Assembly (NCBI GenBank): GCA_001029735.1
Contig: CP011213.1
Location: forward strand, 140,087-204,086
DNA length: 64,000 bases
Direction: 5' to 3'
DNA from: Berkelbacteria bacterium GW2011_GWE1_39_12
Lineage (GTDB): Bacteria > Patescibacteriota > UBA1384 > UBA12157
Shown: piece after piece, positions 3,467 to 63,200 of the stretch
How positions within the stretch are numbered: the first letter of the stretch is position 1
Layout: the number at the start of each line of letters is the position of its first letter
The notes under the pieces: generated by a model
Databases searched by the model: none
Seen by the model: the letters and a program-made list of their open reading frames with translations, nothing else
What the model was told of the DNA's origin: nothing
Program-made: the position numbers and the translations under genes

Positions 3467-3543
3467 GGGCGATTAGCTCAGTTGGTTAGAGCACGTCACT
3501 GATAATGACGGGGTCGGTGGTTCGAGTCCACCATCGCCCACCA
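3467..3543 (+). tRNA. tRNA-Ile (anticodon GAU), with CCA encoded.
   Basis: The 77 nt cloverleaf has acceptor GGGCGAT/ATCGCCC, D-arm GCTC-AGTTGGTTA-GAGC, anticodon stem CGTCA/TGACG, loop CTGATAA (anticodon GAT) and T-arm GGTGG-TTCGAGT-CCACC, followed by ACCA. Confidence 0.9.
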
Positions 3544-10138: not shown

Positions 10139-11595
<1,457 letters not shown>

Positions 11596-57942: not shown

Positions 57943-58215
57943 TCACGTGATTTCAGCTCGTCTTGAGCCGTGAAAGATCCTATCGTACAAACAGGCAACC
58001 TTCTCCCACAACGACATTTCTGGCGGTGTATACTTCTTGTCGCCCTTGTTGTCGAAATAATGCTGAAGGTCACGAAGCAAGCTGACTTTCTGTTCTTCAT
58101 TCAGATCTTTTGTGCGTCGAACGTGGGCCGCGTAGAGATGCTGCTGAATAATATCAATCGCCTCGTTTGCCGTTTGCTGATTCACATCAGGAGCTGCTTG
58201 ATACATTTTCCTCAT
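57943..58215 (-). CDS. Hypothetical protein, 90 aa.
   Basis: It lies in a GC-richer islet and overlaps the upstream ORF by 4 nt (ATGA). Confidence 0.45.
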   Translation of the reverse strand: MRKMYQAAPDVNQQTANEAIDIIQQHLYAAHVRRTKDLNEEQKVSLLRDLQHYFDNKGDKKYTPPEMSLWEKVACLYDRIFHGSRRAEIT

Positions 58216-58463
58216 GTGACGGCCGTAAGATCGCTAACCATATTGATCCGCTGCTGTGGACACAGGCCATTCGGACCCAGATCATGGCCTTGATAGATAG
58301 ATTCATAATCCAAGTGCCGATCTATCACCTTGGCCATCTCTTGCGCCTTAGCGGCCAGCGTATCCCAGTCAGGCACAACCGGAAGACCCGGAATCTCTAT
58401 TGTCCGACTTTCCGGTAATCCGATGACACCTAAGTTGGAGTTTTTTTTCTTGGCAACGACCAT
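58212..58463 (-). CDS. Hypothetical protein, 83 aa.
   Basis: It is the first gene of a two-gene minus-strand operon in the GC-richer islet. Confidence 0.45.
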   Translation of the reverse strand: MVVAKKKNSNLGVIGLPESRTIEIPGLPVVPDWDTLAAKAQEMAKVIDRHLDYESIYQGHDLGPNGLCPQQRINMVSDLTAVT

Positions 58464-59550: not shown

Positions 59551-59958
59551 CTATTTTGTCGTCGAAGCGCTAGTTGTTTGATTATTTACAAATTTACTAA
59601 TGGCATCGTTAATTTTTGAACTGTCTGTTAAATTTTGAAAAAAGATTATTTGATCTCTATTAACGAACATAGTATTTTGTGGTTGATGCAATTCATTTCC
59701 CATTTTGACTAAAACAATCTTTTTGTTAACATCTGAAGAAGTTAAGTCGTTCGTTTTTAAATAATAAACGTCTGAAAGTTTTACGACCTGTCCTTTAGGA
59801 TTTGCAACGTAGCCGAAATAAACTTGTCCATTGCTCATAAAAACCGCTTGCCTAACATTGGATGGTCTTTTTACCATATAAAATTTGTAGCTAAAAAAAC
59901 CGACCCCAAAAACCAAGATAACAATTGCAATAATCGCAATTACTTTTTTACTTTTCAT
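59551..59958 (-). CDS. Hypothetical membrane-anchored protein, 135 aa.
   Basis: The N-terminal transmembrane helix is IAIIAIVILVFGVGFFSY. Confidence 0.45.
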   Translation of the reverse strand: MKSKKVIAIIAIVILVFGVGFFSYKFYMVKRPSNVRQAVFMSNGQVYFGYVANPKGQVVKLSDVYYLKTNDLTSSDVNKKIVLVKMGNELHQPQNTMFVNRDQIIFFQNLTDSSKINDAISKFVNNQTTSASTTK

Positions 59959-60191: not shown

Positions 60192-61067
60192 ATGAATAAA
60201 ATAATCGTTATGCGCAATACTTTAAGAACAATGGTGGCTAGTTCAGCCCTATTGGCTACTTTAGTTGGTGGTGCTGCCTATGCCCAAGTTGATATTTCCT
60301 CAATCAATGGCACTACCGGTCCATGGTCTGAAAACAAAAGTATCTGGGATATTGACCATGATATCGATATCGATATTACAAATGACAGCGAGATTAAAAA
60401 CGATCAGGATATTGACGCAGAGACTGGCCGCAATGAAGTTGAACATAATACAAGCGTTAGCGATTTCACCACAGGTGATATCGACGGCGATATTTATGTC
60501 TCCAATGAATTAGGTGGAAGCGATTTTATCGTTTCAGGAAGTGATTTAGGTTTTGGCGATGTCTCAATAGACTTAGCCAACGGCTGCACTGGACCAAATT
60601 CAGAAAATGAAAATATCGTAGACATAGATAATGATATAGATTTAGACTTCAGAAATTACGTCACCATCCATAATGATTTGGATGCAGATTTGAATACTGG
60701 CGACAACGAAGTTGAACATAATACTGTTGTTGGCGATTTTTCAACTGGTGATATTGATTTTTCTGCCACCACGGAAAACCGAGTTAACAACAACCTTGGT
60801 AATTTAGACCTTGGAAACTTAGTTGGTGGAAATGAAGTCAGTGGCGAAATGAGAAATACCTTAACCGGTCCTAATTCTGAAAACAAAAATCTACTAGATA
60901 TTGAAAATGATATCGATTTAGATGTAACCAACCACACAACCATCCACAATGACACCGATATTGATGCCAATACCGGTAACAACGAGATTGAAAATAACAC
61001 ATGTGTCGGCGACATATCGACTGGCTCTGTCAGCATCGACGTCAGCACAATGAACATCGCTAATTAA
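60192..61067 (+). CDS. Secreted acidic repeat protein, 291 aa, with three copies of a ~58 aa TGPxSEN...DIDxDI...NTGxNE(V/I)EHNT...TGDID repeat.
   Basis: A signal peptide (MVASSALLATLVGGAAYAQ) is present. The internal repeats are obvious in the translation. Confidence 0.75.
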   Translation: MNKIIVMRNTLRTMVASSALLATLVGGAAYAQVDISSINGTTGPWSENKSIWDIDHDIDIDITNDSEIKNDQDIDAETGRNEVEHNTSVSDFTTGDIDGDIYVSNELGGSDFIVSGSDLGFGDVSIDLANGCTGPNSENENIVDIDNDIDLDFRNYVTIHNDLDADLNTGDNEVEHNTVVGDFSTGDIDFSATTENRVNNNLGNLDLGNLVGGNEVSGEMRNTLTGPNSENKNLLDIENDIDLDVTNHTTIHNDTDIDANTGNNEIENNTCVGDISTGSVSIDVSTMNIAN

Positions 61068-61158
61068 TTTTAGCTATTTACCATCTTAGGTAATTGGTGT
61101 GGACTTAGGCTCCTCTAAAGAGGCTAGGTCCCACAAGTAACTTAAATAGGAAGGTATA

Positions 61159-63003
61159 ATGACTACTTTACAAAAATTTTTTAGAAAATCTGCGCTCGCT
61201 TTATTTATCATCTCTTTTGCGTTTTTTAGCACTTTTGCAGCTAGTGCCGCTGGACCGATAGAACCAACAGGGCCACAACAACCAGTTGGGGTTCAGGGTG
61301 AAACCGGACCACAGGAACCGACCGGGAATTATGATGCTTCTCAGGTTGATGCAAGCACTCCGGTCACAACTGATGCTGACACCTTAACAGAAGTTGCTTC
61401 ACCAGAAAATACTTCTATTATTCAACAAGAAAGTACGACGGGGCAAGATTCTACCAATCTTTCAGATAAAAACGGAGCTTCGTCATCTGATATCGATGTA
61501 GAAAATAACAGCACAATCGACAATGATTCAAATGCTGATTTAAATACTGGCAAAAATACAGTTGGTCAAAATTCCGTCGTAGGTAATATTAGTACCGGAG
61601 ATATAAATGGCAGTGAAACAATCGTCGATATTTCTAATAGTGTTTTCGCACCAGGAAGTTCTATCGGCAGTCAAACAATCAACGCTAATGGTGTTAACGA
61701 AATTAGCCTCCTGCCAAGTGATCAGCGCGTTCTATTTGAAAATTCCGTCACTGGCCCGGACTCTCTAAATACTAATAGTTTAAATAATAATAATGATATT
61801 CAGGTCGTCGATAAAAATTCAGCCGAGCATGATAACGATATATATATCGACGCCAACACTGGCGAAAACAATATTTACAACAATACTAAAACAGGTAATT
61901 TAACCACAGGCAATATTAACCTAGGTGTAAATCTGTTAAATTTGGCAAATTTACAATTGCCTAATCTACTATTAAATGCCGATGTTTGGAATATCCTCGG
62001 TGATTTAAATGGTGACATTGTTGTTGACCAGTCACTTGCTAACAATGCCACGGGGCCAAATTCATTAAACAGCAACTACATTAACGCTTACAATAAATAC
62101 TATTTACAAGTTATCCAAAATGCCAATTTAAGAAATCAGCTCAATTTTAACACCAATACTGGCAACAATACTTTAGCTAACAACACCGTGAGCGGCGGTC
62201 TTCAAACCGGTGATACTAATATAAATAGTAAAATATACAATCTTACAAATATCGCCGAATTGCCGGTCTACTATATATTCAACATTTATGGGACATGGGA
62301 TGGTAATTTACTTGGGATCGATCCCTCAAAAGTTTATATAAACTTAGTCAATGACACGACCGGGCCAGATTCTGTAAATGAAAATAATCTTGACTCAAAC
62401 AACACTACTGATGCCCTAATGGTAAATAATGCCTCCGTCGACAATAAAATAAATATTGACGCAAATACCGGTAATAATAAAATCGGAAACAACACGGTTG
62501 TTGGAGCTGTAAAAACTGGCTCAATTAATATCTCCACTAACGTTGTGAACTTTATTAATGCTGTTAGTAACAACGTTGGTAAGTTCACGCTAGGGATTAT
62601 CAATATTTTTGGCAACTGGCACGGAAATATTAAAACACCTGATTACCAAGAAACAGCAAGTCTTCCAACCGAAGAGATATCTGAGCCTGAGCAAATTTCA
62701 TCAATTATCGATAACAATAACTTAGATATTCAGCCAACCGAACAACATAGTTTTACTGACAAATCAAAGACAAAATATGCATTTTCTTCCACAACTAACG
62801 ATAATTTACCAGATAATTTTTCAGGCGCCACCAATAATTCCACAGGTGATAATAAATCTGAAGCCGCGGGTATTTCAAAAGATGCCAAAGGCTTACCGAT
62901 TATTCCAATAGCAGTCGGCGTAGCCATTATATTAATTCTTTGCGGCTGGATTTTAACTGAAATCATTTCGTCTAATCAACTTAAAGCAAAAACAAATAAC
63001 TAA
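61159..63003 (+). CDS. Cell-surface repeat protein, 614 aa, with a signal peptide, a short Pro/Gln collagen-like segment, 4-5 divergent copies of the same ~58 aa repeat family and a C-terminal transmembrane anchor.
   Basis: The signal peptide is LALFIISFAFFSTFAASAAGP. The repeats (TGP(D/N)S(L/V)N..N....N.D..ANTG.NN...NNT..G...TG.IN) are present. The C-terminal anchor is LPIIPIAVGVAIILILCGWIL. Confidence 0.8.
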   Translation: MTTLQKFFRKSALALFIISFAFFSTFAASAAGPIEPTGPQQPVGVQGETGPQEPTGNYDASQVDASTPVTTDADTLTEVASPENTSIIQQESTTGQDSTNLSDKNGASSSDIDVENNSTIDNDSNADLNTGKNTVGQNSVVGNISTGDINGSETIVDISNSVFAPGSSIGSQTINANGVNEISLLPSDQRVLFENSVTGPDSLNTNSLNNNNDIQVVDKNSAEHDNDIYIDANTGENNIYNNTKTGNLTTGNINLGVNLLNLANLQLPNLLLNADVWNILGDLNGDIVVDQSLANNATGPNSLNSNYINAYNKYYLQVIQNANLRNQLNFNTNTGNNTLANNTVSGGLQTGDTNINSKIYNLTNIAELPVYYIFNIYGTWDGNLLGIDPSKVYINLVNDTTGPDSVNENNLDSNNTTDALMVNNASVDNKINIDANTGNNKIGNNTVVGAVKTGSINISTNVVNFINAVSNNVGKFTLGIINIFGNWHGNIKTPDYQETASLPTEEISEPEQISSIIDNNNLDIQPTEQHSFTDKSKTKYAFSSTTNDNLPDNFSGATNNSTGDNKSEAAGISKDAKGLPIIPIAVGVAIILILCGWILTEIISSNQLKAKTNN

Positions 63004-63200
63004 TGCTTCTTTCACGTGAGGAGGTGATTGAATTGATTTATAGTAACCATTCAAATAACATAGGTAAGTGGTTTCGATGTCCCAATTGCTCGAATTACTC
63101 CCTTACGCCAATGGAATGTTGCGGCGAAAATATGGTCGAAGAGCATGAAGAAGAAGTTGAAAATGAAAGTCTAATCATTGTTTACGACGACGATTTCTAA
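63003..63200 (+). CDS. Small Cys-rich Zn-ribbon-like protein (~55-65 aa).
   Basis: CPNCSNYSLTPMECCGEN. The GAGGAGG ribosome-binding site favours the internal TTG start (MIYSNHS...). The ORF overlaps the stop of the upstream gene. Confidence 0.45.
   Translation: MLLSREEVIELIYSNHSNNIGKWFRCPNCSNYSLTPMECCGENMVEEHEEEVENESLIIVYDDDF

Follow-up and report, generated by a model that had tools for sequence, protein, structure and literature searches.

Two adjacent paralogues built from an unannotated repeat module, one secreted and one membrane-anchored, form a candidate surface operon of Patescibacteria with a putative intercistronic RNA element

What do two neighbouring genes encode that share a repeat matching no described family, and do their products belong together? 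The question is raised by a stretch of 64,000 nt from Berkelbacteria bacterium GW2011_GWE1_39_12 (contig CP011213.1, positions 140,087 to 204,086, forward strand), here called the window. Near its end a protein of 291 amino acids (aa), termed A, is encoded directly upstream of a 614 aa paralogue, termed B. Patescibacteria, also known as the candidate phyla radiation (CPR), represent a large share of bacterial diversity, and a life attached to other cells is assumed for most of them. At the molecular level, only a handful of their surface structures is known. We consider it moderately probable that a surface operon specific to Patescibacteria has A and B as its core products, and that the anchored base B and the secreted acidic A form a surface structure.

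The initial annotation of the window, made from the letters alone, described two adjacent proteins with signal peptides. Both open reading frames (ORFs) are found in the ORF list of the window where it had placed them, and both start with a Sec-type signal. In A a basic n-region and a hydrophobic core precede the cleavage site A29-Y30-A31|Q, and A31 is invariant among 23 orthologues. B shows the same elements with the cleavage site A28-S29-A30, whereby A30 is nearly invariant in the orthologues, and AlphaFold2 (AF2) places an N-terminal helix at aa 2-23. Public gene calls put the start of A at Met7 (window position 60210; 285 aa, P0001). The ATG at 60192 has a better-placed Shine-Dalgarno sequence (AGGAAG) than the start at 60210, and the signal peptide is kept either way.

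Protein A consists of three repeat units (aa 38-128, 129-220 and 220-291) and ends with a conserved N-x-A-N-COOH. The mature protein contains 22% D+E and 2.7% K+R, a composition common to all 23 orthologues. A C-terminal hydrophobic segment is present in none of them, and A carries no C-terminal sorting signal of any kind. The layout of B is more elaborate. Behind the signal peptide (aa 1-30) come xPxGPQ hexapeptides (aa 32-58) and a spacer rich in acidic residues and Ser/Thr (aa 59-91). The four modules occupy aa 92-193, 194-293, 294-396 and 397-508, and from the last of them a disordered stalk (aa 509-578) leads to a transmembrane (TM) helix at about aa 579-603 and a basic tail. The stretch of ~70 aa preceding the TM helix is of low complexity and disordered in AF2. 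Both proteins are nearly free of Cys (two in A, one in B).

The repeat is real and occurs three times in A as initially described. The unit is not ~58 aa long, however: the period is 92-103 aa, with a median spacing of 95 aa across about 270 relatives. It comprises a conserved core of ~65 aa and a linker; the linkers of A vary, those of B are hydrophobic and structured. The consensus core, derived from about 900 units, reads N..TGpnS.N.N....(13)....N.A.i.N.....ANTG.N....NTgvG.i.TGd. For B four to five divergent copies had been suggested. A profile of the A units alone matches exactly four (aa 92-172, 194-276, 294-364 and 397-472; E 1e-13 to 1e-16 each), so that the lower count holds and a fifth copy drops out. 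The acidic positions of A are replaced by Asn, Ser or Thr in the B modules. Among the ORFs of the window the unit is confined to A and B. For each window unit, the best-scoring unit of the orthologues is the one in the equivalent position. Hence the designs with three and four units are ancient and stable rather than products of recent slippage. Two explanations for the invariant residues were rejected: N-glycosylation sequons, as the invariant Asn are not in an N-x-S/T context, and isopeptide or ester-bond motifs, as Lys, Gln and His are nowhere conserved.

That the repeat belongs to no known family, as initially stated, was borne out. Neither Pfam-A nor NCBIfam gave anything at E<=1 for A or B, sequence and profile searches against the PDB returned noise only (ribosomal proteins, collagen peptides, E>=0.46), and no published description of the module family was found in the literature. 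By word-indexed searching, 37 relatives were retrieved for A and over 125 for B; a Pfam domain covers the repeat in none of them. A family could be delimited by an exhaustive hidden Markov model (HMM) search built on the 23 A orthologues. It yielded 1954 cluster representatives (50% identity) at E<=1e-3, 997 of them at E<=1e-10 and 258 at E<=1e-30. All source names on family members are Patescibacteria/CPR, including Berkelbacteria, Andersenbacteria, Staskawiczbacteria, Saccharimonadales and 'Patescibacteria group'. The relatives retrieved carry 2-10 copies per protein, and some architectures add DUF11, dockerin or NEW3-type domains. Judged by these searches, the module is a family outside all described ones and is conserved in relatives.

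The arrangement of the two genes was compared in 16 distinct loci, namely the window contig and 15 others. A three-unit A of ~290 aa lies directly upstream of a four-unit B of 556-763 aa in all 16 (one B-type ORF is cut by the contig end), and the spacer between them measures 21-91 nt. The secreted and the anchored paralogue, already seen side by side in the initial annotation, thus keep this arrangement throughout.

The C-terminal TM anchor of B, likewise proposed initially, is recovered by both a hydrophobicity scan and AF2. Within the helix a Trp-x3-Glu motif is found in 33 of 44 close orthologues, with GWILTEII as the window version. A Glu placed inside the membrane may point to a second membrane protein as partner or to a new sorting signal. 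LPx[TASGN]G does not occur in the last 110 aa of the window B, where only 'NLPDNFSG' is found, and no sortase homologue is encoded within the 64 kb. Canonical signals (LPVTG, LPETG or LPLSG) are instead found in more distant relatives. As a separate observation, '(A/Q/E)VLG' recurs in the C-terminal stalks of B relatives (e.g. P0051, P0054, P0056, P0059, P0065 and P0096); an LPxxG/QVAG-like motif and the TM helix follow 15-40 residues further on.

Seven loci contain sortases, directly after B in six and with a second copy upstream in four. A third paralogue with two units is found upstream of A in six of these seven, the seventh being cut by the contig end upstream of A. Its C-terminus shows FFPAG (once FFQAG), a hydrophobic stretch and a basic tail, i.e. 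a textbook tripartite sorting signal. The co-occurrence with sortases suggests that FFPAG may be a sortase recognition motif not yet described. The window has no third paralogue and seemingly represents a minimal version of the system. Given the anchor of B, the sorting signals of its relatives and the sortase context, the family would be located at the cell surface of monoderm-like bacteria, as follows from established knowledge of such signals. The proposal of a surface system is thereby strengthened.

The spacer between A and B holds a further conserved element. In the window it folds at -30.5 kcal/mol (z -4.3), and strong hairpins were obtained for 15 of the 16 spacers as first delimited (z -2.7 to -8.7). 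In the alignment compensatory double changes affect 14 of 16 stem pairs. Paired cells amount to 89.8% compared to 70.0 +/- 1.8 in shuffles, none of 500 reaching the observed value, and to <=54% if the partners are slid. A covariance model (R1) searched over 248 kb of loci gives one match per locus, exclusively at the A-B junction, scoring 26-49 bits on the sense strand and <=24 bits on the antisense strand. The stem-loop of locus L012, which was kept out of training, is still detected (E 8e-6). G-U pairs outnumber A-C mismatches roughly 20 to 7 as counted by eye in the alignment, which fits an RNA rather than a DNA element. No Rfam family matches the stem-loop. We also considered an intrinsic terminator in the A-B spacer and rejected it, since neither a terminator-like site nor a U-tract is present. 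We regard the stem-loop as a candidate for a new cis-regulatory RNA. Its 3' end lies about 5-15 nt upstream of the Shine-Dalgarno sequence of B. This position just ahead of the ribosome-binding site suggests control of the A:B ratio, possibly via partial termination, processing or 3'-end protection.

The structure of B was predicted with AF2 from 71 sequences (mean pLDDT, the predicted local distance difference test, 68.7). The four module cores (aa 111-194, 216-294, 315-396 and 417-508) reach a pLDDT of 85-97 and are confidently predicted to fold as all-beta, while stalk and N-terminus remain below 50. Each module shows a strand segment of ~20 residues, a compact excursion with NTGxN/NTxxG/TG and then strands of 11 residues. 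Mean-field direct-coupling analysis of 655 units gave a weak antiparallel signal only (columns 32-45 versus 56-69, i+j about 101). A Foldseek search with the model of B found nothing significant in PDB (best E 0.69, TM-score 0.04) or BFVD; the top matches, all non-significant, were FapC (E 0.69) and CsgA (E 2.6), both with TM-scores <=0.05. Full disorder without conservation in relatives had been named in the initial annotation as an outcome that would refute its reading. What is found is the opposite: the repeat is conserved in relatives and the module cores of B are confidently folded in the model.

A collagen-like segment had been noted near the N-terminus of B. It is present, comprising nine triplets with Gly at six of nine positions, but it does not amount to a genuine collagen helix. 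In the window B no more than 3 G-X-Y triplets follow each other without interruption; across 44 orthologues this number has a median of 3 and rises to 12 at most, with a few of them at 9-12. Pfam Collagen does not match B at E<=1, and PDB profiles give only weak matches to collagen peptides and BclA (E about 0.5). The segment has neither the length nor the continuity for a stable triple helix; as read from the sequence, it is not a credible one.

The features of the locus and its surroundings are listed in Table 1. The CxxC..CC mini-protein following B had been read as a Zn-ribbon protein and counted to the same system. Its sole database match is the identical UT28_C0001G0217 of Berkelbacteria bacterium GW2011_GWE1_39_12 (100%), and none of the other 15 loci has a counterpart. 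It contains one CxxC (CPNC) and an adjacent CC, and Pfam/NCBIfam matches stay sub-threshold (E about 0.03-0.05). Having no homologue beyond itself and no counterpart elsewhere, it is not part of the A-B system. Together with the KaiC-like and KaiB genes it is inserted between B and the regulator in this lineage only. The regulator, a PucR/CdaR-like protein with GGDEF_2 and HTH_30 domains, is located near the pair in 10 of the 16 loci and in this genome just past the window end. The divergently encoded 135 aa protein has homologues, placed and oriented likewise, in 11 of the 16 loci, and no Pfam or NCBIfam family matches it.

Table 1. Features of the A-B locus, its neighbours and corresponding sites in other loci. 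Positions refer to the window unless preceded by a locus handle (L).
Feature	Position	Strand	Basis and remarks
Protein A, 291 aa	60192..61067	+	Secreted, anchorless, highly acidic; signal peptide aa 1-31, three repeat modules
Conserved A-B stem-loop, core GGATTTAAGG...CCTTAAATCC	61088..61144	+	Folding, covariation, covariance model R1; candidate RNA element
Stem-loop in other loci	L004:5926-5981, L005:5930-5982, L008:5685-5735, L011:6836-6892, L012:6762-6811, and others		
Protein B, 614 aa	61159..63003	+	Paralogue of A, C-terminally membrane-anchored
Degenerate collagen-like / polyproline-type hexapeptide segment of B, GPIEPTGPQQPVGVQGETGPQEPTGNY	61252..61332	+	aa 32-58
C-terminal TM anchor of B, LPIIPIAVGVAIILILCGWILTEII	62893..62967	+	Hydrophobicity scan; AF2 helix 582-613; W-x3-E
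CxxC..CC ORF, 65 aa	63003..63200	+	One base shared with the B stop codon (TAATG); lineage-specific orphan
Short KaiC-like ATPase fragment, 167 aa	63320-63823	+	Pfam ATPase/KaiC, E 6e-8
KaiB-like gene	L001:13604-13873, past window end		Between KaiC-like fragment and PucR-like regulator
PucR-like regulator	L001:13937-15055, past window end		GGDEF_2+HTH_30
Divergent 135 aa protein	59551..59958	-	N-terminal TM or signal-anchor segment; frequent neighbour of the A-B pair
Third paralogue	L005:4083-4979, L010:4696-5787, L012:4780-5775, L013:4879-5802, L016:4786-5799, L019:5542-6462		

Antisense ORFs at 60656-61057 (-), 61875-62075 (-) and 62334-62615 (-) were rejected as genes; they are opposite-strand shadows of the conserved repeats. 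Within A and B such antisense ORFs give BLAST matches across loci. Elsewhere in the window, two small overlapping ORFs of 90 and 83 aa (57943-58463, minus strand) lie between ligA and an HtpX-like M48 protease. They have no Pfam match and are also called on other contigs of the same organism (L001, L002). A full-length 16S rRNA gene is found at 10141-11595 (-), with no adjacent 23S gene within the window. The genes for tRNA-Ala(TGC) and tRNA-Ile(GAT) (2567-2641, minus, and 3467-3543, plus) are located ~7 kb from the 16S gene on opposite strands. As the tRNAs are outside any 16S-23S spacer and no 23S gene is adjacent, the rRNA operon is unlinked.

How could A and B work together? In the surface operon that we favour, Sec would export both proteins. 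B would be tethered through its C-terminal TM helix, a tether replaced by sortase attachment in some relatives. The disordered stalk of roughly 70 residues would keep its four beta-rich modules off the membrane, with the short Pro/Gly-rich N-terminal segment at the distal end. A, with three copies of the shared module, no anchor and a strongly acidic surface, may be held on B or extend from it by module-to-module contacts between the paralogues. Together they would constitute a fibre- or coat-like structure for envelope organisation or attachment. The stem-loop, having no U-tract, most likely would set unequal expression with more A than B, either by stopping transcription in part or by stabilising the 3' end of the A message. 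The nearby PucR-type regulator probably controls the operon, and the sortases and the sortase-linked third paralogue would be lineage-specific additions. Of this picture the architectures, their conservation, the synteny, the covariation of the hairpin and the anchoring signals are shown, while co-assembly at the surface, control of the stoichiometry and the biological role are inferred.

Several points weigh against this picture. The most conserved motif, TGPxSxNxN, and with it likely the most important part, forms a low-confidence lead into each module (pLDDT <50 in AF2). The AF2 model of A, based on 23 sequences, is unusable (pLDDT 44). Binding of A to B is an assumption of the model, and no homology implies a function such as adhesion. 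The B of the window has no LPxTG-like motif and the window no sortase. Finally, the stem-loop could instead be a protein-binding or processing site. A more far-reaching version appears doubtful to us. It holds that A and B, in some lineages with the sortase-linked third paralogue, make up a previously unseen CPR-specific fibre or coat of a new beta fold. Such a structure would need no dedicated machinery and would assemble through homotypic contacts, the conserved TGPxSxNxN lead segments docking onto modules next to them, with its stoichiometry set by a new hairpin class, and would attach the ultra-small cells to hosts or surfaces.

Alternatively, A and B might be independent proteins, e.g. 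two adhesins or nutrient- or host-binding proteins, one released and one cell-bound, which share a binding module and do not co-assemble. The spread of the module over proteins with 2-10 copies and many architectures (DUF11, dockerin, NEW3-type) is typical of modular binding proteins, and the A-B interaction is so far inferred only. However, the order of A then B in 16/16 loci, the fixed numbers of units, their positional orthology and the dedicated RNA element argue for a functionally coupled pair. Independence is rather unlikely in our view.

A clearly less probable alternative is that B, or A and B, form the paracrystalline layer reported for ultra-small CPR cells. Tandem beta modules, a long stalk and a TM anchor resemble stalked S-layer architectures (bioRxiv 10.1101/2024.05.28.596244), and the A-B pair is conserved and single-copy per locus. 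Yet both proteins are small for S-layer proteins, and no link leads from A or B to the S-layer proteins named in that study. Moreover, the family is found in part of Patescibacteria only: a species-level genome scan with an alignment of nine sequences as query gave 13 loci, a number limited by the search pattern.

A functional amyloid, in which the anchored B nucleates cross-beta fibres of A as in curli (CsgA/CsgB), Fap (FapC/FapB) or chaplins, is very improbable as well. A secreted and an anchored paralogue made of imperfect Asn/Gly/Thr-rich repeats would suit it, as would FapC and CsgA as top Foldseek matches. Their scores are noise, however (E 0.69-2.6, TM-score 0.04-0.05). The units of ~95 aa have long strands, in contrast to strand-turn-strand rungs of ~20 aa, and the extreme acidity of A disfavours stacking. 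Nor does the locus contain export genes of the curli or Fap type: the neighbours of A-B are a small TM protein, the PucR-like regulator, sortases or housekeeping genes, with no CsgG/E/F or FapF.

The beta-solenoid or beta-roll binding Ca2+, ice or glycans that was first suspected is just as improbable, for although conserved Asn and Thr are regularly placed and the D/E-rich A with alternating D-x-D patterns could chelate divalent cations, no RTX, bactofilin, pectate-lyase-like or other beta-roll or solenoid family is matched in Pfam, NCBIfam, the PDB or by Foldseek, AF2 strands span 11-20 residues, unlike the rungs of solenoids with their parallel-stranded coils of about 18-25 aa, the coevolution signal is antiparallel and not parallel (i to i+period), the acidity of A is the sole pointer to a ligand, and its acidic positions, not kept in B, are not conserved ligands.

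What the locus offers is a large, CPR-restricted family of an unannotated module with about 2000 clusters at 50% identity, together with an operon design of secreted paralogue, RNA hairpin and anchored paralogue to which regulator, sortases and third paralogue are optional additions. Candidate sorting features are W-x3-E in the TM helix and the sortase-type signal FFPAG. From module and hairpin a new Pfam entry and a new Rfam entry could be built, and the A-B locus provides concrete targets for electron cryotomography, proteomics and genetics in the few cultivable CPR.

Among known systems, the LPXTG/sortase surface proteins of monoderm bacteria come close in architecture. In both cases an N-terminal Sec signal precedes tandem beta modules, and a wall-spanning stalk of low complexity leads to a hydrophobic C-terminal helix with basic tail; related A-B loci contain sortase genes as well as paralogues or relatives with FFPAG or LPxTG signals. 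In contrast, the window B has a hydrophobic segment and a K-containing tail but no LPXTG-like pentapeptide, its TM helix carries W-x3-E, and the A/B module shows no sequence relationship to Cna-B, Ig-like, DUF11 or comparable domains. BclA and Scl1/2 are similar in that Gly/Pro/Gln/Thr-rich triplets adjoin a beta-rich domain on a surface protein, and one orthologue is named 'collagen-like protein' by NCBI. However, three of the nine triplets of the window B are without Gly, and a distal triplet region combined with a C-terminal anchor is the opposite orientation to BclA.

Adjacent secreted and anchored paralogues of imperfect repeats are also known from chaplins (ChpA-C/ChpD-H), curli (CsgB/CsgA) and Fap (FapB/FapC). 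Long chaplins are sortase-anchored paralogues of the short secreted ones. As for such anchored/secreted fibre systems, the A-B intergenic RNA element could set unequal expression. The differences are that neither sequence nor fold similarity of A and B to these proteins is detectable, that their units are far longer, that A is strongly acidic and that genes dedicated to export or assembly are missing from the locus.

As a published CPR filament system we found only the Pam pili (PamA/PamB; preprint 10.64898/2026.03.03.709456). Their pilins consist of a nine-strand beta-sandwich and a truncated Ig-like domain with paired Cys and rely on donor-strand exchange and PapD-like chaperones (10.64898/2026.03.03.709456). 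A/B differ by three to four tandem modules of ~95 aa, by two and one Cys, and by the absence of a detected chaperone-like neighbour; this distinction from PamA/PamB (WP_260763287.1, WP_260763280.1) is drawn from the published description, not from sequence. Both systems are CPR-restricted and combine Sec-exported subunits with a C-terminally TM-anchored base in one operon with no trans-envelope machine (10.64898/2026.03.03.709456). Seen against these systems, A-B resembles the anchored and secreted repeat surface proteins of monoderms, seemingly realised on an unannotated module and with a candidate new RNA hairpin between the two genes.

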